NCBI GenBank assembly: GCA_963663275.1
Contig: OY760183.1
Span: 608,001 to 672,000, forward strand
DNA: 64,000 nt
Direction: 5' to 3'
DNA from: Chloroflexota bacterium
GTDB lineage: Bacteria; Chloroflexota; UBA11872; VXOZ01
Shown: positions 5,487-35,430 of the stretch, in pieces
How positions within the stretch are numbered: position 1 is the stretch's first letter
Layout: every line of letters begins with the position of its first letter
Position numbers and translations under genes: made by a program
Notes under the pieces: model-generated
Told to the model about the DNA's origin: nothing
Seen by the model: the letters and a program-made list of their open reading frames with translations, nothing else
The model's database searches: none

Positions 5487-7352
5487 ATGGCAACAGTAAC
5501 AGACGTACGCACACAGGAACGGGTTTCGACCGGCGCGGCGATCTGGAGTTGGGTCACCACCATCGACCACAAGCGCATCGGCGTGCTCTACTTCGTCACG
5601 TCCCTGATCTATTTTCTGGTTGCCGGTTTCGAGGCGCTGCTCATCCGGCTGCAACTCGCCACGCCGGAAGGCCAGTTGCTTGGCTCGGACACCTACAACC
5701 AGCTCTTCACCATGCACGGCACGGCCATGGTCTTCATGGTCGCCATGCCCATGGCCGCGGCCTTCTTCAACTTCCTCATTCCGCTGATGATCGGCGCCCG
5801 GGACGTGGCCTTTCCGCGCCTGAACGCCTTCAGCTACTGGACGTTCCTCGGCGGCAGCCTGCTCATGCACAGCAGCTTTCTCTTCGGCCAGGCGCCCGAC
5901 GGCGGCTGGTTCGGCTACGCCAACCTGACCACCAAGGAATACTCCCCCGGCCTCAGCATCGATTTCTGGGGTCTGGGCCTGCTGGTGCTCGGTGTGGCGT
6001 CGGTAGCCGCGGCGCTCAACTTCATCATCACCATCATCAACCTGCGCGCCCCGGGCATGACCCTGATGCGCATGCCCGTGTTCGTCTGGATGACCTTCGT
6101 TACCTCATTCCTCATCATCTTCGCCTTTCCCGCCATCACGGCCGCGCTCATCTTCCTGGAATTCGACCGCCTGTTCGGCACGAACTTCTACGAAGTGGCC
6201 GAAGGCGGCGACCCGATGCTCTGGCAGCACCTCTTCTGGGTCTTTGGACACCCGGAGGTCTATATCCTGGTCTTGCCGGGCTTCGGCATCGCCTCGGAAA
6301 TCCTGCCCACCTTCTCGCGCAAGCCCATCTTTGGCTACAGCGCCATGGTCTTTGCCGCCGTGTCCATCGGCTTCCTGGGCTTCAGCGTGTGGGCGCACCA
6401 CATGTTCACCACCGGCATGGGCACCATCGCCGACGCCGCTTTTGCCGGTTCCACCATGCTCATCGCCATTCCCACCGGCATCAAGATGTTCAACTGGGTG
6501 GCCACCTGCTTTGGCGGGCGCATCCGCCTGACGGTGCCCATGCTCTTTGCGCTGGGATTCCTCACCACCTTCCTCATCGGCGGCCTTACCGGCCCCATGC
6601 TGGCGGCCGTGCCGCTGGACCTGCACTTCCAGGATAGCTACTTCGTGGTCGGCCACTTCCACTACGTGCTCTTCGGCGGCCTCATCCTGGCGCTGATGGG
6701 CGGGGTCTACTACTGGTATCCCAAGATTACGGGCCGCATGATGAGCGAGAAGATCGGCAAGTGGCACTTCTGGCTCATGTTCCTGAGCATGAACTTCACC
6801 TTCTTCCCCATGCACTTCGTGGGGCTGGACGGCATGCCGCGCCGCGTGGGCACCTATGCCGCCGGCATGGGCTGGGACTTCTGGAACATGTTCATCACCA
6901 TCAGCGCCTTCGGCATCGGCCTTTCCATCCTGGTGTTCCTCCACAACTTCGTGGTCAGCTACAAGAAGGGCGAACCGGCCGGCAACGACCCCTGGGACGC
7001 GCGCACGCTGGAATGGGCGATGCCCAGCCCGCCGCCGGAGCACAACTTCGATGAAATCCCCCTTGTCACCCACCGCGATCAGGTGTGGTACGACAAGTAT
7101 GGCGAGGGTCACGGCGACGCGGCGCAACTCAGGAAAACCACCGCGGCCGTGGCCGACGAGCCCGACGAGGAAGTTGACGTCCACATGCCGAACCCGTCCT
7201 ACTGGCCGCTTCTGGTCGGCGCGGGCCTGACGATCGCGGCCGCCGGCTTGATGATTCACATTCTGGTGGCGATATTCGGCGTCGCCTGGACGATCGTGTC
7301 GATTTACGCATGGTCGCTGGAACCCGCCTCCGACCCGCCGGGAGAACATTAG
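5487..7352 (+). CDS. ctaD: cytochrome c oxidase subunit I (A1 type)
   Basis: TIDHKRIG, GHPEVY (A1 signature), WAHHMF, HFHY, GMPRR; two extra C-terminal helices as in caa3/bo3 enzymes. Confidence 0.97.
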   Translation: MATVTDVRTQERVSTGAAIWSWVTTIDHKRIGVLYFVTSLIYFLVAGFEALLIRLQLATPEGQLLGSDTYNQLFTMHGTAMVFMVAMPMAAAFFNFLIPLMIGARDVAFPRLNAFSYWTFLGGSLLMHSSFLFGQAPDGGWFGYANLTTKEYSPGLSIDFWGLGLLVLGVASVAAALNFIITIINLRAPGMTLMRMPVFVWMTFVTSFLIIFAFPAITAALIFLEFDRLFGTNFYEVAEGGDPMLWQHLFWVFGHPEVYILVLPGFGIASEILPTFSRKPIFGYSAMVFAAVSIGFLGFSVWAHHMFTTGMGTIADAAFAGSTMLIAIPTGIKMFNWVATCFGGRIRLTVPMLFALGFLTTFLIGGLTGPMLAAVPLDLHFQDSYFVVGHFHYVLFGGLILALMGGVYYWYPKITGRMMSEKIGKWHFWLMFLSMNFTFFPMHFVGLDGMPRRVGTYAAGMGWDFWNMFITISAFGIGLSILVFLHNFVVSYKKGEPAGNDPWDARTLEWAMPSPPPEHNFDEIPLVTHRDQVWYDKYGEGHGDAAQLRKTTAAVADEPDEEVDVHMPNPSYWPLLVGAGLTIAAAGLMIHILVAIFGVAWTIVSIYAWSLEPASDPPGEH

Positions 7353-7357
7353 CGCGT

Positions 7358-7533
7358 ATTCCATAGGACTAGCCGTTGTTCCACAGCAAAGGCAGTTGCT
7401 CCATGGCAAAGGCATCTGTTCCATAGCAAAGGGCAGTTGCTCCATAGCAAAGGGCAGTTGCTCCATGGCAAAAGCATCTGTTCCATAGCAAAGGGCAGTC
7501 GTTCCATGGCAAAGGCAGTCGTTCCATAGGAAT
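7358..7533. repeat. 20-21 bp tandem array (GTTCCATAGCAAAGGGCAGTT-like, about 8 units)
   Basis: Starts just after the ctaD stop, inside the cox operon. Confidence 0.9.
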
Positions 7534-7578
7534 GGCGGCCTTTCCCGGAATAGCAGCGCAGGCGCGCTCCCATCCTGT

Positions 7579-7612
7579 CCCCTCTCCCTGAGGGAGAGGG
7601 CTAGGGTGAGGG
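7579..7612. repeat. CCCTCTCCC-N-GGGAGAGGG...GGGTGAGGG palindromic repeat (further copies near 11781, 46020-46115, 46642, 49590, 61830-62140)
   Basis: Recurrent intergenic hairpin motif. Confidence 0.8.
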
Positions 7613-7694
7613 TTGAGAGTGCGGATGAGAGTTAAGACGAAAATACCAAAGCGCAATAGAGCCAATTGCGGGCTAGCGTGAGGAGAATCTCTGA

Positions 7695-8327
7695 ATGAGC
7701 GATGCAGCACTCGCCCACGAGGCGCATGAAGAGCATCCAACGTCCACGGGACTGAACCACCGCAAGATCCTCATGTGGGCCTTCCTCGGCTCGGAGTGCA
7801 TCTTCTTCGGTTCGCTCATCACCACCTACCTCGTTTATCGAGGCAAGAGCGTGGTCGGCCCCTATCCCAGTGAGATTCTCAACATTCCGCTCACGTCGAT
7901 AAGCACGTTCGTGCTGCTCATGAGCAGTCTGGCGATGGTGCTGTCGCTCGCCGGTTTCGAGAGAGCGGCGGGGGCCGGCGCGGACGAAGAGCGCAGGCAG
8001 CGCGAGTTGCGCAAAGGCCGCTTCTGGCTGCTGATGACGGCGTTGCTCGGCACCGGGTTCCTCGGCTTCCAGGCGTACGAATTCATCGAATTCGTGCACC
8101 ACGGGTTGGGGCTTACCACCAATCTCTTTGGCACCACCTTCTACGTGCTCACCGGCTTTCACGGCACCCACGTCGGCGTGGGCGTCGTCTGGCTGGTATC
8201 GCTGCTGGTGTTGAGCTACTTTGGCAAGGTGAAGCCGCTGGACGTAGAACTGGGCGGCCTCTACTGGCACTTCGTGGATATTGTCTGGATTATCATCTTC
8301 ACCTTGATCTACCTGATTCCGCATTGA
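7695..8327 (+). CDS. ctaE: cytochrome c oxidase subunit III (short form)
   Basis: MWAFLGSECIFF, LTGFHGTHV, YWHFVDIVW. Confidence 0.95.
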   Translation: MSDAALAHEAHEEHPTSTGLNHRKILMWAFLGSECIFFGSLITTYLVYRGKSVVGPYPSEILNIPLTSISTFVLLMSSLAMVLSLAGFERAAGAGADEERRQRELRKGRFWLLMTALLGTGFLGFQAYEFIEFVHHGLGLTTNLFGTTFYVLTGFHGTHVGVGVVWLVSLLVLSYFGKVKPLDVELGGLYWHFVDIVWIIIFTLIYLIPH

Positions 8328-24606: not shown

Positions 24607-26988
24607 ATGGCGTCCCGTTCCAGCGCCGCAAGCCGCAAGTCCTCGTCCAGTAAATCGCGCCTGCCGTTCCCCTCATTGAGCCTGCCCTCGCCGCTGCGGC
24701 GGGAAGTGTTTGGCGTGCTCAGCATCGTGGTTGGCCTGCTCTCGGCCATTGCGCTCATCTCGCCCAGCGGCACGGTGAGCGGTTGGTGGCACGGCCAACT
24801 CACCGGCCTCTTCGGCTGGATGGCGCCGCTGCCCGCGCTGGCCGCCGTCGTGCTGGGCGTGCAACTCATACGCGACGGCATCCGCCAGGAACGCTCCGTG
24901 CGCTGGGAGACCCTGACCGCGCTGGTGGTGCTGGTGCTGGCCTCCACGGCGTTCGCGCAGTCGCTGGCCGGCCCGCCGGAGATGGCGGCAAACTATCCGG
25001 TCGGCGGCGCCGTTGCCCTGAACATCCTCGCCCCGCTCACTACCGCGCTGGGCTTTGCCGGGGCCGTTATTGTGCTCTTCGCCTTGCTGCTCGTTACCAC
25101 CATCATCACGTTTTCGATCTCGCTGGGCAGGATTCGCGGCGCGTTCCTTGCCTGCGTCTGGCGCCCGCTGGGGTTGCTGGGCAAGGGCGCGGCGGCGGTG
25201 TTCCGCGCAGCCGGCGGCGCCTACCGCCGCGCCGACGAGCAAGCGGCCGAACCCCCGCAACCGGAAACGCCCCAGCCCCGCGCCATTCCCGTGCGCTTAG
25301 CCGCCAGCGCGGCCGCCGCGCCGCCCACGGCGCTTGAGGACGAGGACTCCCCGCCCGCGGCGGCAGACGACGCCTTGGACGAAGACGTGGATTTCATCCA
25401 GGATGAGGATTTCGTCCAAGACGCCGCCATGATGGATGCGGAAGAGGAAGACGCGCCGCCGCGCTGGCAGTTGCCGCCGCCGGAACTGCTGACGCCCGCG
25501 GCGGCCAACCACGACGCGGAAGAGGCCACCCAGGAAATCGAGCAACGGGCGCTCATCATCGAGGAAGCCTTGCGCAGTTTCAAGGTGGTGGCGGAAGTGG
25601 CCGAGGCCATCCGCGGCCCGGCCGTTACCCAATACCGCCTGACGTTGGGACAGGGCGTCAAAGTGAGCCGGGTGGTGAATCTCGCCAACGACCTGGCGTT
25701 AGCCTTGGCCGCCACCAGCGTGCGCATCGAAGCGCCGGTGCCCGGCTTTCCGTTCGTCGGCATCGAGATTCCCAACCACTACACCACCATCGTCACCATG
25801 CGCGAGTTCATGACCGACGCCGCCTTCGCGGAGCACAAGGGCATGTTGCCCCTGGCCCTGGGGCGCGACGTGGCCAACGACGTGCGCGTGACGGACCTGG
25901 CCACCATGCCCCACCTGCTGATTGCCGGTTCCACGGGTTCCGGCAAGTCGGCCTGCGTGAACGCCATCATCTGCTCCCTGCTGATGCAGCACACGCCGGA
26001 GACGCTGCGCTTCCTGGTGGTGGACCCCAAAATGGTGGAGATGATCGGCTACAGCGACATTCCCCACCTGCTGCGCCCGGTGATTACCGACCTGGACGAG
26101 GTGGTGCCGACCCTCATGTGGGCCGCCGACGAGATGACCCGCCGCTACAAGGTGCTGGCGCAGGAGGGCTTCCGCAATATCCAGACCTACAACGCCGCCA
26201 AGCAAGAGGCCGGCGAAGAACCCATGCACTACCTGGTCATCCTGATCGACGAACTGGCCGACCTGATGATGACGGCCGCCGGCGACGTGGAGAAATACCT
26301 CTGCCGCCTGGCGCAGATGGCGCGCGCGGTGGGCATCCACCTGGTGGTTTCCACGCAGCGCCCCTCGGTGGACGTGCTCACCGGCCTCATCAAGGCCAAC
26401 TTCCCCTGCCGCATTGCTTTCGCGGTCAGTTCCCAGGCCGATTCGCGCACCATTCTCGACGGTGGCGGCGCGGAGAAGCTCATCGGCCAGGGCGACATGC
26501 TCTTCGCGCCGAAAGAGGCTACCCGCCTCACCCGTATCCAGGGCACCTACCTGGACGACGACGAGATCAACCGCATCGTGGAGTTCTGGCGGGCGCAGGG
26601 CGCGCCGGAATACATCCCGGAGAAGTCTTTCGAGGAAGCCGCAGCCAACCACCAGGATAACAAGGACGACGATCTGGTGCGCCAGGCCATCCGGCTGGTC
26701 TCGCAATACGACAACGCTTCGGCCTCTTTCCTCCAACGCCAACTGGGCATCGGCGCGACCAAGGCGAACCGCATCCTGGATACGCTGGAAGAACGCGGCA
26801 TCGTGACCCCGCCGGAAGGCGTGGGCCGCGTGCGCCACGTGCTCGTCTCCGCCAACGACCTGCTGGAAGACGACGAAACCGACGACTTCGACGACACCGA
26901 CGACACCACCACCGCGCCGCCCTTCACCCCGGACGACCCCGCAACCGCCGGCGCGAAGGACGAAGAGTTCTCCCGGTTCCCCGTGTAG
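24607..26988 (+). CDS. ftsK: DNA translocase FtsK
   Basis: N-terminal TM segments, PHLLIAGSTGSGKS, IDELADLM, TQRPSVDV, GAEKLIGQGDML, gamma domain ASFLQRQLGIG. Confidence 0.97.
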   Translation: MASRSSAASRKSSSSKSRLPFPSLSLPSPLRREVFGVLSIVVGLLSAIALISPSGTVSGWWHGQLTGLFGWMAPLPALAAVVLGVQLIRDGIRQERSVRWETLTALVVLVLASTAFAQSLAGPPEMAANYPVGGAVALNILAPLTTALGFAGAVIVLFALLLVTTIITFSISLGRIRGAFLACVWRPLGLLGKGAAAVFRAAGGAYRRADEQAAEPPQPETPQPRAIPVRLAASAAAAPPTALEDEDSPPAAADDALDEDVDFIQDEDFVQDAAMMDAEEEDAPPRWQLPPPELLTPAAANHDAEEATQEIEQRALIIEEALRSFKVVAEVAEAIRGPAVTQYRLTLGQGVKVSRVVNLANDLALALAATSVRIEAPVPGFPFVGIEIPNHYTTIVTMREFMTDAAFAEHKGMLPLALGRDVANDVRVTDLATMPHLLIAGSTGSGKSACVNAIICSLLMQHTPETLRFLVVDPKMVEMIGYSDIPHLLRPVITDLDEVVPTLMWAADEMTRRYKVLAQEGFRNIQTYNAAKQEAGEEPMHYLVILIDELADLMMTAAGDVEKYLCRLAQMARAVGIHLVVSTQRPSVDVLTGLIKANFPCRIAFAVSSQADSRTILDGGGAEKLIGQGDMLFAPKEATRLTRIQGTYLDDDEINRIVEFWRAQGAPEYIPEKSFEEAAANHQDNKDDDLVRQAIRLVSQYDNASASFLQRQLGIGATKANRILDTLEERGIVTPPEGVGRVRHVLVSANDLLEDDETDDFDDTDDTTTAPPFTPDDPATAGAKDEEFSRFPV

Positions 26989-26993
26989 CCGGC

Positions 26994-27270
26994 GTAGGGG
27001 CAGGCCTCGTGCCTGCCCGTCCTCACGGGACAGCAACCAAAGGGCAGGTACAAGACCTGCCCCTACGACCAACACCAGATTCCAGACCGGCGCTTTCCTT
27101 CCCGCGAGCTACGACCGCTGTAGGGGCAGGCCTCGTGCCTGCCCGATCTCGCCGAATCGCAACCAAAGGGCAGGTACAAGACCTGCCCCTACGACCAACA
27201 CCGATTCCAGACCGGCACCTTCCCACCCGTGCGCTGCCACCGCTGTAGGGGCAGGCCTCGTGCCTGCCCG
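26994..27270. repeat. BIME-like REP cluster: GTAGGGGCAGGCCTCGTGCCTGCCC (x3) alternating with inverted GTAGGGGCAGGTCTTGTACCTGCCC (x2)
   Basis: About 126-bp period, alternating orientation, directly after the ftsK stop. Confidence 0.9.
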
Positions 27271-27399
27271 TCCTCGCGCACGGGCGTTGCGTGCGGCGGG
27301 TATACTATACAAACAGCGCCTACCGCGTCAGAATACGCTCCACTATCCCCGCTGGCAGGCGCGCGCCAATTGGCGCCGCCCGTGAGGCCCGGCCAACCA

Positions 27400-28173
27400 A
27401 TGACCCCGCAACGCCTGAGCAAGAAGCAGACCGTCATCACCAAGCTCTACGCCGCCTGCAAAGAGCGCGGAGAGATGACGTTCGACAACGACGACGTCAA
27501 GCGGGTGTGCGCAGAGGTCGGCTTCGCCAATCCGTTCGACGCCACCAAATGGGATAACTCAGCCGCGCTTCCCACGGCCTTGGCGGCGGATGACGTCTTC
27601 GTCGTTCACCTCGGCAAAGGCCGGCACCGGTTCGTAGCGGGCATCGATATTGGGTATCATACATTTGAAGCGGTGCCGGAAAACCGCCGCTACCAATGGT
27701 ACTACCGGCGCAGCATGCTCAACAGCATCAACACCAGCGAGAGCAATATCCCGTATGAAGGGTACAATCAGCGAATTATTCACGACTTTCTCTATGGAGA
27801 TGTCACCGTTTCGCCGAACGTTCACTTCTCCAGCTACACGAAGTTTCCCTTCAGTTTTCGCATTGGTTCAGATGAAATTGCCGCCACTAGCGTACCGGTA
27901 GCGATTGACTTCACCGCAGAGCATCATGGCTCAGTCACCGTGTTCAAGGCACAGAATGGCGAACCTGCCGATTTCAACGTCTTCCGTCTGTATAACCCGT
28001 TTCGCTACTATGCGCGTGTCGCCGAAGACAAACCGGTTTCGGCAATACAGTGTTGCTACCTGCTGCGCAGAGATGAGCGTTTGCGGTTGTACCTCTATTC
28101 ATTTACCGACCCCCAAAGTCCTGAATCAATCCGGCTGGAACGCAACGCCGAGTACACTTTGGTTGAGCGATGA
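27400..28173 (+). CDS. type II restriction endonuclease-like PD-(D/E)xK protein with degenerate active site
   Basis: NPFDATK.D, HLGKGRHRFV, TSES, ID...E...V, LY.PFRYY recalled from a DUF6996/DUF6997-like REase family; ATGA-coupled to an MTase; the expected E-x-K reads K-A-Q. Confidence 0.65.
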   Translation: MTPQRLSKKQTVITKLYAACKERGEMTFDNDDVKRVCAEVGFANPFDATKWDNSAALPTALAADDVFVVHLGKGRHRFVAGIDIGYHTFEAVPENRRYQWYYRRSMLNSINTSESNIPYEGYNQRIIHDFLYGDVTVSPNVHFSSYTKFPFSFRIGSDEIAATSVPVAIDFTAEHHGSVTVFKAQNGEPADFNVFRLYNPFRYYARVAEDKPVSAIQCCYLLRRDERLRLYLYSFTDPQSPESIRLERNAEYTLVER

Positions 28174-28955
28174 CTGCGTTGCCTAAGCACTACCGAAACC
28201 GAATTGTCAACGACGATGTGATGGCCGTCCTACGCGATTTGCCGGACGGGTGCGTTGATATGGTGTACGGGGATCCCGACTACAATGTCGGCATCAAGTA
28301 CGATGGAAGGTCGTTTACGTCTTCGTGGGACGAGTACGTCGAGTGGTACGTGGCACTAGTCAGGGAGTCGCTGCGCGTCCTGCGGCCTGACGGCAACATG
28401 TTCTTCATCAACTATCCGCGTCAAAATGCATACCTTCGCGTAAACTACCTGGACGAGCACGCCTATGCCGTGCACGACTATGCTTGGGTGTTCAACACCA
28501 ACGTCGGCCACAGCCCCCGCCGGTTCACTACGGCCCATCGCTCGATACTGCACGCCACCAAGTCCAAGCACAACCGGTTTTACACGGAGCAAATTGCAGA
28601 CCGCGCGGCAACCCTACCGCCTCCCGAACAAGAAGAAAGCACAGACCAAGAACAAGACGGTCAAATGCCCTATTCCTGGCTTTACTTCAATCTAGTTAAG
28701 AATGTGTCCCGACAGAAGACCGATCATCCTTGCCAAATCCCCGAGGGACTCTCGGAACTGCTTATCAAGTCGTGCACTGTGCCCGGAGACTCGGTTTTCA
28801 TCCTTTTTGGCGGCAGCGGTTCGGAGGTCGTTCAAGCGCAAAGCCTCGGCCGCGTCTTTCTCTCCTGCGAACTCCAGCCGCGATTCTTTGCGCTCATTGA
28901 GAGCCGGCTGCGGGACGGCGGCGCAATCCACGAGCAATTTCGTCTCCCGGTCTAG
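28170..28955 (+). CDS. N4/N6 DNA methyltransferase, beta class
   Basis: Motif IV variant DPDY near the N-terminus, HPCQIP, motif I LFGGSGS near the C-terminus. Confidence 0.88.
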   Translation: MTALPKHYRNRIVNDDVMAVLRDLPDGCVDMVYGDPDYNVGIKYDGRSFTSSWDEYVEWYVALVRESLRVLRPDGNMFFINYPRQNAYLRVNYLDEHAYAVHDYAWVFNTNVGHSPRRFTTAHRSILHATKSKHNRFYTEQIADRAATLPPPEQEESTDQEQDGQMPYSWLYFNLVKNVSRQKTDHPCQIPEGLSELLIKSCTVPGDSVFILFGGSGSEVVQAQSLGRVFLSCELQPRFFALIESRLRDGGAIHEQFRLPV

Positions 28956-29060
28956 CGCAATTGCCAACATGCTGGCGAACCGATTTCCATTGCTGTCAAA
29001 GTTACCTAATGGCAGTACGGGAGCGGCAAGTACGGAACGGCCAACACAGTCTACGCGACC

Positions 29061-29471
29061 TTGGGCACTATCGATACGCCGGCGTTGCGTTATCCGGCAT
29101 TGAGCGAATACGTAGAGTTGCCGGGCGCGGTCTATGGCACAATCCGCGCCTGGTGGCGTATACTGATTGCGCACAGTGCCGGAAAGGGAAGTACGATGGT
29201 CGCGCCAGATCTGGATTCCATTCGGCCTTGTGAAGACGAATGTGGTTGTCCGCAAAAACACTACCACCTGCTTATTCCAGATTATGACGATGAGATAGAA
29301 GAAGAACAGGCGTATCCGGGCGGCATCAAGCCGGGGCGGTACAACTGGGACGCCCTAGTTAACTTACTGCGCTACCACAAAGGCAACCCGGACTCTATTC
29401 AGTTCATCGCTGACATGCTGGATGGGTTGGAAGAGATGGAGCAGTTTAGGCTACGCATGGCGCATAGTTGA
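29061..29471 (+). CDS. hypothetical protein in the R-M island (start could be 29196)
   Basis: Co-oriented ORF between the two MTases; C-x3-C-x-C-x3-H cluster and an acidic stretch. Confidence 0.45.
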   Translation: MGTIDTPALRYPALSEYVELPGAVYGTIRAWWRILIAHSAGKGSTMVAPDLDSIRPCEDECGCPQKHYHLLIPDYDDEIEEEQAYPGGIKPGRYNWDALVNLLRYHKGNPDSIQFIADMLDGLEEMEQFRLRMAHS

Positions 29472-29522
29472 CCGTTGACGACGTGCCTGGGTCGTGTTTT
29501 GGCATTTTCAAGGTAGGAGCCA

Positions 29523-30392
29523 GTGAGCAGCGTTCCGGCAATACGCCTCAGTCCCTATACTGGACAACCGTTCCTGAAGTGGGCCGGCGGCAAGACCCAG
29601 TTGCTCACGCAACTTGAGCGGTTCTTTCCCACAGAGTGGGAATCGTACTTTGAGCCATTCACCGGCAGCGCCGCTGTTTTCTTCTATTTGCGCAGAACAC
29701 GAGGCGAGTTTCCTGCTACGTTGATGGATTACAACGAGGAACTGGTTAATTGCTTCACAGTCGTGCGCGATGACGTTGATAGGCTCATCCCATTGCTGGA
29801 ACAACATCGGGACAGTCATGGAAAAAGAGCGTATTACGCACTGCGGAGGAAACAACCTCGAGACCTTCCCAGGGTCCCGCGGGCGGCCCGCCTCATGTAC
29901 ATGAACAAAGTCTGCTACAACGGCTTGTATCGAGTGAATGCCAACGGCGAATTCAACGTGCCCATGGGGTCGTATAAGAATCCGCGCATCTTCGAAGAGG
30001 GTGCTCTATATGCCGCGTCACACGCGCTCAAAGGAACCAACCTGCTAGCGGACGACTTCAGCAAAGTCCTCGATCTGGCCAAACCAGCGGACTTTATCTA
30101 CTTCGACCCGCCGTATTATAGTGATTCTGGAGGCTTTACCGGGTACGCCGTAACCTCAGCGGGAAGCGCTACTTTCGGAGCGGAGGATCATTGGCGCCTC
30201 TGTGAAGTGGTAACAGAACTGACTGAACGTGGCTGCCACGTTGTGCTAAGTAACAGCAATACCGATTACATACGCCAACTCTACCGAGACTTCTCGATAC
30301 ATGAGGTCTTGGCGAAAAGGGCCATCAACCGCAATGGTTCAGGCCGGGGGCCGGTAACGGAACTGGTAATAACCAATCATGGCCTCAGATAA
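29523..30392 (+). CDS. Dam/DpnM-like DNA adenine methyltransferase, alpha class
   Basis: FLKWAGGK, EPFTGSAA, YRVN..GEFNVPMG, YFDPPY, LSNS, KRAIN. Confidence 0.95.
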   Translation: MSSVPAIRLSPYTGQPFLKWAGGKTQLLTQLERFFPTEWESYFEPFTGSAAVFFYLRRTRGEFPATLMDYNEELVNCFTVVRDDVDRLIPLLEQHRDSHGKRAYYALRRKQPRDLPRVPRAARLMYMNKVCYNGLYRVNANGEFNVPMGSYKNPRIFEEGALYAASHALKGTNLLADDFSKVLDLAKPADFIYFDPPYYSDSGGFTGYAVTSAGSATFGAEDHWRLCEVVTELTERGCHVVLSNSNTDYIRQLYRDFSIHEVLAKRAINRNGSGRGPVTELVITNHGLR

Positions 30393-31266
30393 GATTCCCT
30401 CAATCAAGGTTCCTCAAGCAGACCGGCTAGACCGCGTTGAACAACTCATCGCGCTCGTTGACGCCGGAATTGAGGAGAACGACGATCTTGCGGTACGCAT
30501 GGGATTCGACAGACGTCAAGTCCTTTACTATAAGCAAGCAGCGTGCATCCTCGACTTTGCCGTATCCGACAGTGAGCAAGCTTTTGAACTAACTGATAAA
30601 GGCAGAGCATTCCTTAAGGCCGTTCGACCAGACCAGAAGCAACTGCTTCTCTCCGAGGCAGTGCGAGAGTGCGAAGTCGTTAAGGAGTTGTTGGGGCTTT
30701 ACACAGAGTCCGAACTGAACAGGAACACCATCACTCGTTTTCTGACACAAGAAGCCGAAATATCAGGCACTACACCGGAAAGGCGTGCCTCTACTCTTAT
30801 TGCGTGGCTAAAGTATGCAATCCAACTTGACCCGGAGAGTTATCCCTCACTCGCTCAAAATGCGGCCATAGAGGCGCCCAAGAAACATCGGAGGTTTAGC
30901 CGCGGTAGAGAGGGCCCTTTGCATCTTGGCTTGAAAGAAGGTGTTGCAGAGAATCCGTCTTTGCTTGAAGAAGGCCTCACGCTTATACAATTGGAGTACC
31001 CATTCCCCACCAACGACCGTGCGGACATTCTCTTTATTGACGCTAACGAGCGCTTCCTGGGAGTCGAGGTGGAGGTAGATGTTGGCGCGGTAGACGTTGT
31101 AGGGCTTATGCAAGCTGTCAAGTACAAGGCTATGCTAGCGTTACAGTTTGATGTTGGTTATGAAGACGTGCGCGGGATGCTGGTCGCTCGCAGTATTCAC
31201 CCCCGAATGCAAAAGCGGGCAGAGCGATACAACATCGACACACGCGAGATTACGTCAATAATCTGA
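30379..31266 (+). CDS. putative restriction endonuclease: N-terminal winged-helix (PQAD...RRAST..W) plus C-terminal NucS-like nuclease
   Basis: Overlaps the MTase stop; EG.LH, EY...DRADIL...EVE...Q..KY nuclease-like pattern. Confidence 0.7.
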   Translation: MASDKIPSIKVPQADRLDRVEQLIALVDAGIEENDDLAVRMGFDRRQVLYYKQAACILDFAVSDSEQAFELTDKGRAFLKAVRPDQKQLLLSEAVRECEVVKELLGLYTESELNRNTITRFLTQEAEISGTTPERRASTLIAWLKYAIQLDPESYPSLAQNAAIEAPKKHRRFSRGREGPLHLGLKEGVAENPSLLEEGLTLIQLEYPFPTNDRADILFIDANERFLGVEVEVDVGAVDVVGLMQAVKYKAMLALQFDVGYEDVRGMLVARSIHPRMQKRAERYNIDTREITSII

Positions 31267-31321: not shown

Positions 31322-32578
31322 GTGAACTACACGCGCATTGCGGTGACAGGCATCGGGGCGGTGACCCCGTTGGGGCATAGCGTGGCGGAGTCGTGGGATA
31401 ACCTCTGCGCGGGGGTTTCCGGCATCGCGCACACTGCGGGCTACGATGCCACTGACTTCCCGGTGCAAATCTCCGGCGAAGTGAATGGGTTCGACCCCAA
31501 CGCGGTCTTCAAGGGGTTGCCGCGCCGCATCTACAACGACGCGCGCCGGCAGGACCGGACGCACCAGTATGCGCTGGCCGCCTCCCTGGAGGCGCTGGCT
31601 CACTCCGGTTTGCCCCTGCCCTTGCCGGAAGAGTTGCAATTCCGTTGCGGCGTGGTTTCCGGCAATTGTCTCGGCGGCGTGACCAACGTGGAATCGGCGT
31701 CCCAGCGCACGGGCCGGGGCGAGTTCAGTACGTTCCTGCCCAGCGAGGTGCTGCGGATAATGCCCAACGCCGCCACCGCGCTCATCGCGGCGGCCGTTCG
31801 CGCGCGCGGTCCCAATTTCACGCCCGCCGTCGCCTGCGCCACCGGCACGATTGCCATGGGCGAGGCCATGTGGATGCTGCTCACCGGACGCGCCGACGTG
31901 ATGGTGGCCTGCGGGTCCGACGGCGTGGTGGTGCCGACGGTGACGGCGGTGTTCGCGGCCCGCGGCGGCCCCATGAGCCGCCGCAACGACGATCCCCAGC
32001 ACGCCAGCCGCCCGGCCGACGTGGACCGCGACGGTTTTGTGATGGGCGAAGGCGGCGCCGCCATGATCCTCGAGCGCGAGGCCGACGCCAAAGCCCGCGG
32101 CGCGCCCATCCTGGCCTACCTGGTGGGCTACGGCTGCACCAACGGCACCGGCGGCCGCACCGAACCCGACGGCGACGGCCAGGTGCAAACCATGAAGATC
32201 GCGCTGGAAATGGCGGGGCTCGAGGCCTCAGACATCGACGCTATCAACCCGCACATGACCTCTACCGTCATCGGCGACCGGGTGGAAGCCGCCGCCCTGC
32301 GCGCGATGTTCGGCGATCGGCCCTACGTCTCGGCCACGAAGTCCAGCACCGGGCACATGCTCGCGGCCGCGGGGTCGTTCGAGGCGGTGGCCTGTGTGAA
32401 GATGCTGGAAGACCGGAAAGTGCCCGCTACCATCAATACCACAACCATCGCCCCGGATTGCGCCGGCATCAACTACGTCCTCGGCACAACCATCGACGCC
32501 CCCCTGGAGTTCGTGCTCTCCAACTCCTTCGGCTTCGGCGACCACAACGCCACGCTCATCTTCCAACGGGCGGATTGA
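31322..32578 (+). CDS. fabF: beta-ketoacyl-ACP synthase II
   Basis: VTGIGAVTPLG, ACATG (catalytic Cys), DGFVMGEG, NPH.TST, KSSTGHM, SNSFGFG. Confidence 0.88.
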   Translation: MNYTRIAVTGIGAVTPLGHSVAESWDNLCAGVSGIAHTAGYDATDFPVQISGEVNGFDPNAVFKGLPRRIYNDARRQDRTHQYALAASLEALAHSGLPLPLPEELQFRCGVVSGNCLGGVTNVESASQRTGRGEFSTFLPSEVLRIMPNAATALIAAAVRARGPNFTPAVACATGTIAMGEAMWMLLTGRADVMVACGSDGVVVPTVTAVFAARGGPMSRRNDDPQHASRPADVDRDGFVMGEGGAAMILEREADAKARGAPILAYLVGYGCTNGTGGRTEPDGDGQVQTMKIALEMAGLEASDIDAINPHMTSTVIGDRVEAAALRAMFGDRPYVSATKSSTGHMLAAAGSFEAVACVKMLEDRKVPATINTTTIAPDCAGINYVLGTTIDAPLEFVLSNSFGFGDHNATLIFQRAD

Positions 32579-32594
32579 GGGAGAAAGCCGCCAA

Positions 32595-32792
32595 TCATTG
32601 CTCTTCAGCAGTAGAAGGAGGCAAGTACTGCCTGGCGACCGCCATCAGTTCCGCCGCTAACTGTTCACCAAGTGCCGTTGGTTCCACAAACTCTGCTTCA
32701 ATTCTCTCCTTCACGGTCAATGGCGTCACGGCCTCCTCACTCTCGCCCATGTTGCGCACACGTGTCTCCGTGTTCCGCGACTGTCCCGCCAC
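32595..32792 (-). CDS. small acidic hypothetical protein (65 aa), partner of the Ntn gene
   Basis: GTG start preceded by AAGGAGGAG inside the 3' end of the upstream gene. Confidence 0.55.
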   Translation of the reverse strand: MAGQSRNTETRVRNMGESEEAVTPLTVKERIEAEFVEPTALGEQLAAELMAVARQYLPPSTAEEQ

Positions 32793-34107
32793 TGTGCTCC
32801 TCCTTAGCTATTGATTGGAAGTATTGCGGATTGAGATCGCGCTCAAAGTAGTGCTTGCGTTGAATCCAGATTAGTCCGTCCCCCTTTGATATTAGCATCA
32901 CATCAATTGGACCGCCCACGGTTTCTTGTTCTTGCGATACTCTACGTTTGAATGATTGCAGGTTCACTAGAGCTTCCGCTACCGCCGGCAACTCACTCTT
33001 GGGCATGCTGGCCACAGTATTGATCACCGGCCCTATGAACTTTTCGGTACCAATGGTACTAAGCTTTTCAAGAAACTCTTCGAATATCCTCTCGGATGCC
33101 TTTGCAGTATCTTCCCTAAGTCGCTTTCTTTCTTGCTCAGAGATTCCCTCTACGTTGTCAATAATGGTGGCTGGATAGTCCTTCAGTATCCCATTAACTG
33201 CACCCAACAAGACTCCCCTATACTCCGGGTCAATTCCCTCCATGAAAGATTGGACCATTTCTTCTTGTGCAAAGGGAATTATCGTCGATCCGTTTTGAGC
33301 ACCGATATCCGCAGACTTGCCTTCAAAGTGTCGGTGCTTCAGTAACCCACCAGCGATTCCAGAGACTATAATTGCTCGTACGGAGGGAAAGAGTTGCTCT
33401 TCGCCAAATCCAGCAATGACAACACCAGAACCTTCGAGCGAAGTATCTTGCCCATCGTATTTTGACAAGACCCACCCTGCAAGCCGCGTAACCTTTCTGG
33501 AAGCACTAGTGGTCAAATCTGAGCCAATCGTTGTATCCTTCGTTTGCTTGATTATAGACCGATAGTTCCTTCTCAGTGCGTCGGCAGAAGCAGAATTCAT
33601 GTCCTCTGCATAATCGGCTCTTCTCCAACGCTGATAATGGGATTCGACTACCTCTGTCTTTACTTTCCGAACGAGGCGATCAAAGTCTCTGCTTGTTAAG
33701 TTTGGTTCCCCTTGCACTTCACTTACCACCTGGTCCTGAATCTGTCTAGCCATGCGTCCAAATTGGGCCGTCAGCACTTGCCTGACGTACATCTCCTGAC
33801 TCCCCGCCGGTGCAAGAGACGACTCCTTTTGGAGGAAGCTGACGAAATCATCTGCATAGTTTTCAACAGATGCAAGCGCGGTACTTCCTAGCTTCACTCG
33901 ATACATCTTGATTACTGTTTCCCAAGGCACTCCCATGAAGTTGGCCCCGCCATATACCATAATGCCGACCGGATGGTGCCGGGAGAGCGCGAAAAGCTTG
34001 TTCGCGGATGCAAAGATTTTGGGTGCGCCACCCTGGAAAGTGGTAACAGCACTGTCAGCAGCCAAGGCGACAGCTTCTTTGTTCATGATCGCGATCTCTG
34101 CGGTCAT
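32737..34107 (-). CDS. proteasome-beta/HslV-like Ntn hydrolase with large helical insertion
   Basis: After Met removal Thr1, Asp17 (ALAADS), Lys36 (NKLF), Gly52, and C-terminal TVGGPIDV; low GC. Confidence 0.7.
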   Translation of the reverse strand: MTAEIAIMNKEAVALAADSAVTTFQGGAPKIFASANKLFALSRHHPVGIMVYGGANFMGVPWETVIKMYRVKLGSTALASVENYADDFVSFLQKESSLAPAGSQEMYVRQVLTAQFGRMARQIQDQVVSEVQGEPNLTSRDFDRLVRKVKTEVVESHYQRWRRADYAEDMNSASADALRRNYRSIIKQTKDTTIGSDLTTSASRKVTRLAGWVLSKYDGQDTSLEGSGVVIAGFGEEQLFPSVRAIIVSGIAGGLLKHRHFEGKSADIGAQNGSTIIPFAQEEMVQSFMEGIDPEYRGVLLGAVNGILKDYPATIIDNVEGISEQERKRLREDTAKASERIFEEFLEKLSTIGTEKFIGPVINTVASMPKSELPAVAEALVNLQSFKRRVSQEQETVGGPIDVMLISKGDGLIWIQRKHYFERDLNPQYFQSIAKEEHSGGTVAEHGDTCAQHGRE

Positions 34108-34248
34108 TCCATCGCCTCGCGCGGTACTCTCATATATACTTCATTGACGTATGTCGCTCTGCCACTACCCTTATCAGTACACACAAACGACACAGGCTGC
34201 TATTCCGATAGGCAACGTTACGCACTTAATTCTCCACAAAGGACCTGC

Positions 34249-35430
34249 ATGAGTACACCACCTGCCTTACCTTACGATCTGGTCGTCCACGCCGGGCGGG
34301 TGCTCTGTCCCGCGACCGGGCTGGACGGGCCTGGGGCGGTGGCGGTGCGCGGCGACCGTATTGCGGCGGTTTTGCCGGCGTCACAGCCGCCGGACGCTGC
34401 GGAGAGTGCCGCGCTGCCGCAAGGCGCGGCACGGCAGACTCTTTCTTATCCCGACGGCATCCTGCTGCCCGGCCTGGTGGACGCGCACGCGCATCCGGCG
34501 CTCTCCGGCTCCAAGTACGGCATCGACGCCGACGCGCACATATTGCCCTACGGCTCCACCACGCTGCTCTCGCAGGGCGACGCCGGCGCGCAGAATTGGG
34601 CGCGCTACAAGGCGGAGACCATCGGCGGCAGCCGCGCGCGCATCTTGATGGCGCTCAATCTCTCCGCTACCGGCGAGACCAATGAGGAAGGCTGCTTCGC
34701 CGAGCTTGCCGACGCCGACGTTGACGCCTGCGTGGAAACCGTGACGCAGGATCCCGATACCATCTGGGGTATTGCCGTGAACGTCGGCCCCACCAACTGC
34801 CGGCAGAACGACCCCCGCGAGGTCATGGCCCGCGCCCTGGCCGCCGCCGAACGCTCCGGCACGCCCCTGCTCGTCGGCCAGCGCCGCCACGACGATTGGC
34901 CGCTGGCGGAGCAGTTCGACCTGCTGCGCCCGGGAGACGTGGTGACCTACTGCTTCCATGCCCGGACCGGCAGCATCCTCGAGAACGGGCGCGTGCGGGA
35001 CTGCGTGTGGGCGGCCCGCGAGCGGGGGATTCTCTTCGACCTCGGCCACGGCATGGATTCGTTCAACTTTCACGTGGCCGCGGCCGCAATCGGCGAGGGC
35101 TTCCTGCCGGACACCATCTCCAGCGACGTCTACGCCCGCCACGTGAATAGCAAGCCTCGCCACCATCTACCGCTGGTGATGTCCAAGCTCCGCGCCGCCG
35201 GCATGAGCGAGGCCGACATCTGGCCCCGTGTGACCTCGCGCCCCGCCGCTCTGCTCGGCATGGATAACGAAATCGGCGCGCTTACGCCCGGCGCGTGCGC
35301 CGACCTGGCCGTCCTCCGTTGGCACGGCGAACCGCGCCCGCTCCGCGACGCCGCCGGCAACGAACGCCGCGGCGGCGTGTGGGAACCGCTGCTGACGGTA
35401 CGCGGCGGCGAGATTGTCCAAAGCGGGTGA
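34249..35430 (+). CDS. amidohydrolase/deacetylase (dihydroorotase-like) family metallohydrolase
   Basis: PGLVDAHAH, LRPGDVVTYCFH, DLGHG, DTISSD, PGACADL. Confidence 0.85.
   Translation: MSTPPALPYDLVVHAGRVLCPATGLDGPGAVAVRGDRIAAVLPASQPPDAAESAALPQGAARQTLSYPDGILLPGLVDAHAHPALSGSKYGIDADAHILPYGSTTLLSQGDAGAQNWARYKAETIGGSRARILMALNLSATGETNEEGCFAELADADVDACVETVTQDPDTIWGIAVNVGPTNCRQNDPREVMARALAAAERSGTPLLVGQRRHDDWPLAEQFDLLRPGDVVTYCFHARTGSILENGRVRDCVWAARERGILFDLGHGMDSFNFHVAAAAIGEGFLPDTISSDVYARHVNSKPRHHLPLVMSKLRAAGMSEADIWPRVTSRPAALLGMDNEIGALTPGACADLAVLRWHGEPRPLRDAAGNERRGGVWEPLLTVRGGEIVQSG

Follow-up and report, generated by a model that had tools for sequence, protein, structure and literature searches.

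A mobile low-GC cassette pairing a predicted proteasome-type Thr1 hydrolase with a small coupled partner protein

We analysed a two-gene cassette at positions 32595 to 34107 of a 64,000-nucleotide stretch of Chloroflexota DNA (contig OY760183.1), which as a whole is called the window below. The first gene, 32737..34107(-), encodes a 456-amino acid (aa) protein beginning MTAEIAIMNKEAVALAADSAVT, which the list of open reading frames (ORFs), an AlphaFold model and the protein's relatives point to as a proteasome-beta-fold Thr1 hydrolase of the N-terminal nucleophile (Ntn) type, probably belonging to the PMI-4 group introduced below; we refer to it as the enzyme. Conservation and structure alignment place its predicted nucleophile, N-terminal after loss of Met1, at Thr2 (codon 34102..34104(-)). 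The second gene, 32595..32792(-), starts with GTG and encodes a 65-aa acidic protein (12 Glu against 5 Arg and 1 Lys by manual count), the partner, for which profile, alignment and model indicate a disordered N-terminus, an E-P-x-x-L-G motif and an amphipathic helix. Its ORF overlaps the end of the enzyme ORF by 56 nucleotides (nt), and the DNA reads as a Shine-Dalgarno-like AAGGAGGAG at 32797..32805(-), inside the 3' end of the enzyme gene and 4 nt before the partner GTG. Judged by this arrangement, the enzyme and partner genes are predicted to be translationally coupled. The original prediction, made by a model from the letters of the DNA, had described a small acidic ORF with a ribosome-binding site overlapping the 3' end of the enzyme gene, and site, overlap and composition all agree with that description. 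The cassette is also low in GC, as had been claimed, with 0.488 at 33001-34000 against 0.636 and 0.652 in the flanks. A promoter and terminator scan of 32300-34500 gave 0 promoter-like sites and 2 terminator-like sites, both on the wrong strand and with no excess over shuffles.

Sequence comparison placed neither protein in a described family. No family in Pfam (E<=1), NCBIfam or PADLOC-DB v2.0.0 (E<=1) matched the enzyme or the partner, a PDB sequence search had no match for either, and a PDB profile search with the enzyme family found no proteasome match; the Pfam Proteasome profile PF00227 itself does not match the enzyme at E<=1. The enzyme was modelled with AlphaFold2 on a 28-sequence alignment (mean predicted local distance difference test, pLDDT, 79.8; predicted template modelling score, pTM, 0.74). 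The best structural match of this model in the VIA search was the 20S beta subunit 8adn_X (Z 17.1, 185/193 residues, root-mean-square deviation 3.3), and the first 18 rows were all proteasome, Anbu, HslV or BPH structures, other Ntn hydrolases following further down. Z was 15-17 for 20S beta subunits, 15.2 for Anbu, 11.9 for HslV, 11.8 for BPH, and 9.8 and 8.9 for Connectase. Foldseek, which had been suggested together with the original prediction for comparison with known proteasome structures, returned 28 matches at E<=0.001, and the matches listed were all Anbu or 20S subunits, in line with the proteasome-type Ntn fold that had been proposed. A BFVD fold search with the model gave 0 matches at E<=0.001, and ESM Atlas matches to the enzyme consisted of unnamed clusters and one PF00227 cluster (score 0.90). 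The relation of the enzyme to the proteasome is one of fold and active site, not of Pfam family.

The predicted active site is strongly conserved. In the VIA alignments, the first residue of mature beta subunits, HslV, BPH and Connectase is paired with residue 2 of the model, and the Thr/Asp/Lys catalytic set named in the original prediction corresponds to residues 2, 18 and 37, of which Thr2 is kept in 264/269 relatives, Asp18 in 268/269 and Lys37 in 268/269. The five relatives without Thr2 are truncated gene calls with N-terminal gaps. An 'MT' start, that is, Thr immediately after Met1 and no propeptide, occurs in 251 of the 269. Gly53, which ends the strand 47-53, is Gly in 239/269 and is a candidate equivalent of the oxyanion-hole Gly47. 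When the first 75 alignment columns were compared by hhalign with 13 Chloroflexota HslV sequences (P 0.0021, against P 0.4 for a reversed control), Asp18 fell on Asp17 and Lys37 on Lys33; the full-length comparison with HslV was uninformative because of the insertions. The motifs NKLF (carrying Lys37, mature-chain Lys36), GVVIAGFG and ETVGGPIDV, which had been singled out by the first reading of the sequence, were all found and are near-invariant among relatives. Because of the fold matches, the conserved Thr/Asp/Lys and the 'MT' starts, we take the enzyme to be a proteasome-type Thr1 hydrolase without a propeptide, and by its predicted site it should be catalytically competent.

Two helical insertions double the size of the enzyme in the model, in keeping with the long helical inserts described in the original prediction. 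Insertion 1 (33460..33819(-), residues ~97-216), defined by model secondary structure and by short paralogs, comes after the H1/H2 core helices (62-73, 81-94), and its five helices fall within 101-215; it is missing (profile positions ~99-215) from natural paralogs of ~320 aa in the same genus. Insertion 2 (33004..33228(-), residues ~294-368), defined by the model, is a long helical hairpin between core H3 (282-290) and H4, with helices 294-318 and 324-367, and its model range 292-357 matches generic helical hairpins alone in the VIA search. The model and the HslV alignment place ~3 extra residues, and no large insertion, ahead of Lys37. Enzyme residues 83-163 (window 33619-33861) gave borderline profile matches to the Cullin-3 repeat region in PDB (E 0.009-0.05), which are probably due to helical bias or composition; insertion 1, as a five-helix bundle, resembles a cullin repeat in that respect.

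This architecture agrees with a group that is already on record. Fuchs, Alva and Lupas (2021; PMC8665760) catalogued 22 new proteasome homologs, among them the PMI groups ('Proteasome homolog with Multiple Insertions'), and according to their description long insertions follow H1/H2 and separate H3 from H4 in PMI-3 and PMI-4. The largest PMI group there is PMI-4, with 501 sequences at 90% identity from many bacterial phyla, Euryarchaeota and phages (PMC8665760, Table 1). As far as the published description goes, the enzyme shares with PMI-4 a proteasome core with Thr1/Asp17/Lys33, the lack of a propeptide, insertions after H1/H2 and between H3/H4 with none between S3/S4, and a large family whose members come from many bacterial phyla as well as from Euryarchaeota and phages. 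The enzyme family is most likely PMI-4, since architecture, size and distribution agree with that description; the ~320-aa short paralog may be PMI-2-like. The two differ in that the family analysed here has a conserved partner gene and sites on mobile elements, whereas no context is given for PMI-4 in the text of the catalogue (PMC8665760) considered here; its authors state there that they found no genomic context or co-occurrence pattern hinting at function. The original prediction had put the enzyme forward as a candidate new protease or defence system. As a sequence family it was probably catalogued in 2021 (PMC8665760), which weakens the claim to newness; the other part, that it is functionally uncharacterised, stands, as a literature search for a functional study of the enzyme family returned only the catalogue and papers citing it. 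The partner gene, the motif shared by partners, the paralog that lacks insertion 1 and has a partner of its own, and the prophage/satellite placement were likewise not found in literature searches.

Clustering of neighbours in 70 loci gave a single recurrent companion of the enzyme gene, a small ORF starting at or just before the enzyme stop codon. A profile built from 32 such ORFs was searched against 17,002 six-frame stop-to-stop segments from 80 loci and the 64-kb window. All 64 matches at E<=0.0032 (the 32 seeds and 32 non-seed segments) lie directly downstream of an enzyme gene on the same strand (64/64), and off-target matches start only at E 1.9. The partner ORF of the window, which was not among the seeds, matched at E 1.2e-4. 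On this sequence evidence the 65-aa ORF is a real, conserved and coupled partner, as the original prediction had proposed, and pairing extends to viral loci and to the short paralogs. A small ORF adjoins 41/42 full-length viral enzyme genes, and deposited phage records annotate a 58-aa coding sequence right behind the enzyme gene. The short paralogs (~320 aa; L098-L102, in five genomes of the host's genus) are followed by an overlapping, very acidic ORF of 52-81 aa with the motif [ND]DPE.IA.RVVDVFW; since these paralogs lack insertion 1 and also have a partner, the pairing is independent of insertion 1. Controls were exceeded in each of three respects, the fold search, the conservation of catalytic residues and the position at which the small ORF is conserved, and we are highly confident of the identity of the enzyme and of the two-gene unit. 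No second copy of the partner was found in the host genome at E<=1, and a search of 829-2365-aa proteins with the enzyme profile found no fusions of the enzyme to other domains, which is weak evidence.

The aligned partners have a variable, often Lys-rich N-terminus, with a '..RS..EF...FFP' motif in the main branch, followed by a common segment [DEN]-[PA]-x-x-[FL]-G and an amphipathic helix. This segment is present in 30/38 aligned sequences (manual count), its Gly in at least 90%, and the partner of the window has it as EPTALGEQLAAELMAVAR. Identity between the window partner and the other aligned partners is 15-34%. The partner model is mostly of low confidence, with one confident helix at 38-56 (block pLDDT 79-88), and prediction of the enzyme-partner complex with two alignments scored 0.00 and 0.22, against a mark of 0.32, which speaks neither for nor against a complex.

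A few loci depart from the simple pair. Behind one enzyme gene (L053) the partner is duplicated in tandem (68 aa and 64 aa; regions 7311-7514 and 7475-7705), and both copies contain 'DPREFGRRVA'. In the closest relative (L001/L104, 73-74% identity) the enzyme ORF extends to 473 aa and shares up to ~175 nt with the partner-like frame (profile E 3e-7 to 6e-6), for which no obvious start is seen at the usual place; the junction there may involve a frame change. Three of the five genomes with short paralogs (G043, G082 and G076) have two or three enzyme matches, G043 and G082 both a full-length and a short form.

The enzyme family is large and widely but patchily distributed. A word-indexed search gave 5,623 relatives at E<=1e-3 among 8,000 candidates scored, and an exhaustive search gave 5,123 clusters at 50% identity, 2,392 of them at E<=1e-30. 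Nearly all relatives are 420-460 aa long, unnamed and without a Pfam domain. Across 185,579 species genomes, 481 pattern-matched stretches encode relatives, in Chloroflexota, Poribacteria, Planctomycetota, Acidobacteriota, Actinomycetota, methanogens, anaerobic methanotrophic (ANME) archaea, Thermococci and others. Within the host's class the enzyme is found in 9/81 genomes, all of one genus (8/16 of its other genomes, 0/64 in other genera). The cassette is at least 3 GC points below its flanks in 65/70 loci and at least 3 points above them in none (median -10.9 points). Relatives of the enzyme are carried by 10 plasmid records, by 13 deposited phage records (seven Streptococcus satellite phages, two Streptococcus prophages, a Providencia lambdoid phage, two Stenotrophomonas phages and one Porphyromonas phage) and by 55 IMG/VR stretches representing 54 loci. 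The enzyme and partner form a self-contained, low-GC, horizontally mobile cassette found in bacteria, archaea, prophages, satellites and plasmids.

On phages and satellites, the cassette often occupies accessory sites. In satellite Javan468 the pair are genes 18 and 19 of 19; in the Providencia lambdoid phage the order is Q-Dam-cassette-holin, in a Stenotrophomonas phage the cassette adjoins the holin gene, and in the Porphyromonas phage it sits inside the head module between portal and neck genes. We annotated three ORFs on each side of the cassette with PHROGs at 22 non-redundant viral loci. Five of these have the cassette within three ORFs downstream of a CI-like repressor gene and in the same orientation (L119, L127, L128, L130, L155), and one has it beside another regulator (L148). 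At four it is on the opposite strand, with antiterminator Q on one side and holin on the other (L124, L138, L139, L141), at two it adjoins the integrase (L115, L121), at two it follows endolysin/holin (L106, L107), at two it is in or beside packaging and head genes (L111, L149), and at six the context is uninformative (L105, L108, L118, L120, L154, L156). In total 13/22 are accessory or immunity sites. CI-adjacent, Q-lysis, integrase and satellite-end positions are usual places for accessory genes expressed by the lysogen, including those for exclusion and defence; rexAB beside cI in lambda and the Q-lysis moron site are examples. The cassette shares these positions with prophage moron and immunity genes such as rexAB and with the defence hot spots of prophages and satellites, a likeness of position alone, with no relation in sequence or mechanism.

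The neighbourhoods in cellular genomes are heterogeneous. Most neighbours are housekeeping genes (CODH/ACS, ThiC, CTP synthase, tRNA synthetase, fatty-acid genes), some are transposases, and in two loci the cassette is flanked by the permease genes of an ABC transporter. At 69 cellular loci we took the four closest ORFs with a minimum length of 120 aa (246 ORFs in all), scanned them with PADLOC and judged the matches by hand. A credible restriction-modification (R-M) or defence-type neighbour is present at 13-16/69 loci, which is a raw count without a background for comparison and includes several related Poribacteria loci. One set comprises L004, L014, L019, L025, L029 and perhaps L010, the other L046, L052, L053, L056, L063, L067, L077, L078 and perhaps L054 and L061; the remaining PADLOC rows are generic cross-matches, for example FtsK to SspH and radical SAM to pVip. 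We rate the defence association from cellular neighbourhoods as weak to moderate. In our reading, the prophage and satellite positions favour an anti-phage role better than the cellular neighbourhoods, which favour it weakly.

These observations can be combined into a working mechanism. Methionine aminopeptidase would remove Met1 and expose the Thr nucleophile. Since the insertions fall at the sites of proteasome ring contacts, which they would block, the enzyme would not be a self-compartmentalising degradation machine; it may instead be a sequence-specific peptidase or a connectase-like transpeptidase. The co-translated partner may be its dedicated ligand, with the acidic residue-Pro/Ala-x-x-Phe/Leu-Gly segment and the amphipathic helix docking at the enzyme, where the partner would either be cleaved or block the active site. 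The pair may then serve in conflicts between mobile elements and their hosts, as an exclusion, abortive infection or addiction function expressed from lysogens or satellites. We think it somewhat probable that the partner is a direct ligand of the enzyme, whereas a role in conflict or defence is tentative, falling a little short of even. The explanation as a whole, a Thr1 hydrolase with the partner as ligand in mobile-element/host conflict, is the best we can offer, and for us its truth hangs in even balance. A more detailed version, which we put forward as speculative and rather unlikely in all its parts, is a widespread and hitherto unrecognised two-gene conflict system of prophages, satellites, plasmids and genomic islets. 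In it a non-compartmentalised Thr1 enzyme would recognise its co-translated ~60-aa partner by sequence, as Connectase does its target, and would cleave it, transfer it or be restrained by it; during infection, this pairing would activate the protease towards a target in the phage or the host.

Connectase is a precedent for this type of mechanism. It is a monomeric proteasome homolog that acts as a protein ligase of strict sequence specificity; in the published account it binds KDPGA plus 10 residues, cuts between Asp and Pro, keeps the N-terminal fragment as an amide on Thr1 and does not respond to classical inhibitors (PMC7980362). The enzyme and Connectase (MJ0548 / M. mazei) have in common an Ntn core with an N-terminal Thr/Ser nucleophile, with no ring assembly in Connectase, and, where Connectase targets a specific partner sequence, the partner described here has an acidic residue-Pro...helix motif at its best-conserved place, a possible parallel. 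The differences are considerable: Connectase lacks H1/H2 and has a two-helix lid between S3 and S4, whereas the enzyme keeps H1/H2 and has its insertions elsewhere, the structural match is weaker (Z 9.8 against 17.1 for 20S beta), and Connectase is restricted to methanogens. HslV (ClpQ) resembles the enzyme in its Met-Thr start without a propeptide and in an N-terminal strand pair in register with Thr1-Asp17-Lys33 (Z 11.9), but it has ~175 aa, assembles as a double hexameric ring and depends on the HslU ATPase, whereas the 456-aa enzyme has two insertions and a small non-ATPase partner. In structure the enzyme is closest to the 20S beta, Anbu and BPH proteins, which have the same catalytic residues; they differ in that the enzyme has no PF00227 match and has insertions at the ring interfaces.

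Several points weigh against the conflict explanation. It rests on sequence, models and genomic context, and no Pfam, NCBIfam or PADLOC model matches either protein. The authors of the catalogue argue from their models that insertions placed like this would stand in the way of rings and double rings (PMC8665760), and the blocking of rings is their reading, not a measured result. The two-gene rule has gaps: 11 further loci have only non-significant partner matches at the right position, and at two Caldilineaceae loci (L026 and L034) no partner can be detected behind the enzyme gene. These two, where the enzyme gene is flanked by two ABC-transporter permease genes, are the clearest exceptions. 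Not every partner has the Pro of the motif ([DENT]-P in 21/38, D-[AST] in 9/38, manual counts), and phage partner sequences are very divergent. No enzyme-partner fusions were found in longer proteins with the partner profile or in the 829-2365-aa proteins with the enzyme profile, weak evidence in itself. Some IMG/VR 'viral' contigs may contain host flanks, and the cellular neighbourhoods have the housekeeping bias, the absent background and the relatedness already described.

The strongest rival sees in the enzyme a protease for housekeeping or stress, comparable to HslV or BPH, which would form a novel oligomer and use the partner as an assembly factor, cap or trans-acting propeptide, without any role in conflict; Ump1 is the model for a partner of the assembly-factor type. 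The fold and catalytic set are those of ring-forming proteases, many cellular loci lie among housekeeping genes, and in the host lineage the position between a ketoacyl synthase (KAS) gene and an amidohydrolase gene is fixed in five genomes. A housekeeping protease would not be expected, however, in 8/16 genomes of one genus and 0/64 of the others in the class, in a cassette ~11 GC points below its flanks, or at prophage accessory sites and on satellites and plasmids, and the insertions fall at ring-contact sites according to the published models (PMC8665760). We consider this explanation improbable.

Slightly less probable again is an addiction module of the toxin-antitoxin kind, in which the hydrolase would act as the toxin by cleaving a host protein that is essential and the partner would be a labile antitoxin, the module stabilising mobile elements with no specific anti-phage function. 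A self-contained, mobile, low-GC two-gene cassette found on plasmids and prophages, with a small, partly disordered second protein whose gene can be duplicated in tandem (L053), would suit such a module. Against this, the small gene is downstream and translationally coupled, an order that does not favour an excess of antitoxin; the partner has no recognisable DNA-binding domain, and among known profiles PADLOC brought up neither a toxin-antitoxin nor a defence match.

We reject as very improbable the idea that the enzyme is a protease maturing phage heads and the small protein something like a scaffold: the pair does lie between head-morphogenesis and scaffold genes at L111-L114 and between portal and neck genes in the Porphyromonas phage, but most copies are cellular and without phage genes, prophage copies occur mostly at immunity, Q-lysis or integrase sites and often on the strand opposite to the late genes, and satellites carry the pair as a terminal accessory unit. 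Equally improbable is that the small ORF is a chance frame or a gene with no functional tie to the enzyme, for although high-GC DNA yields many spurious ORFs (dozens in the window) and the window partner has low identity to the others, the 64 profile matches are exclusive to the position behind the enzyme gene, the frame is also present in AT-rich phage genomes and annotated in their deposited records, and a strong ribosome site precedes the partner gene.

Should the more detailed version of the conflict explanation hold, an immune or exclusion role in prokaryotes would be a first for the proteasome family, and the enzyme might also be a second natural connectase-type ligase. The roles known for the family in prokaryotes are bulk degradation (20S, HslV), unexplained assemblies (Anbu, BPH) and, once, precise protein ligation (Connectase). 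If the family is PMI-4, the near-obligatory coupled mini-protein and the mobile-element lifestyle would be a clue missing from the 2021 catalogue, and partner, motif and placement give a family of more than 5,000 clusters a functional hypothesis that can be tested, the first it has had. Like Connectase, a Thr1 peptidase or transpeptidase that is sequence-specific and has a genetically defined 60-residue substrate would be a useful tool. It deserves mention that the enzyme was recognised as proteasome-type from a reading of the raw sequence alone: the Ntn fold is present, Thr/Asp/Lys are conserved and no functional characterisation was found, and the core of that interpretation is upheld.

In the window the cassette is preceded by FtsK (24607-26988), two R-M pairs (27229-28955 and 29523-31266) and KAS (31322-32578), and followed by the amidohydrolase and an S-adenosylmethionine methyltransferase. 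The first R-M pair consists of a DUF6996/DUF6997 protein and an N6_N4 methylase, the second of a Dam-type methylase and a DUF7226/NucS_C endonuclease-like protein. The distance from the cassette to the R-M genes is ~1.3 kb (32595 minus 31266), the figure given in the original prediction. L002 and L003 have FtsK, KAS and the cassette without R-M genes, which rules out a single island made up of the R-M genes and the cassette, and in L052 another methylase occupies the spot. For these reasons the R-M island is a separate insertion beside KAS, and its adjacency to the cassette is probably coincidental; the 27229-31266 region resembles an R-M integration hot spot independent of the cassette.

The original prediction had also noted that no HslU or Pup genes accompany the enzyme, and this extends to the host: in the whole 3.53-Mb genome no hslU above the cut-off and no Pup were found. 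The best hslU match (94.9 bits against a cut-off of 362) is at 1.84 Mb, far from the window, and the weaker hslU-like places are all outside it. The nearest genes are those for the ketoacyl synthase and the amidohydrolase, and no alpha subunit or Anbu-type operon was seen near the enzyme, among the genes of the 64-kb window that were annotated. At ~0.90 Mb (L081:1201-2007(-)) the host genome has a second proteasome-family protein, a 269-aa frame with a PF00227 match at E 1.3e-12 that contains TLIVGIKAKDGVVLGADGA and is not HslV-like; it may be another of the catalogued proteasome homologs. Among the sequencing runs listed for the stretch there was no RNA run; three sponge-metagenome DNA runs from one study contain at least half of the sampled words of the stretch, which fits a sponge-associated Chloroflexota host.

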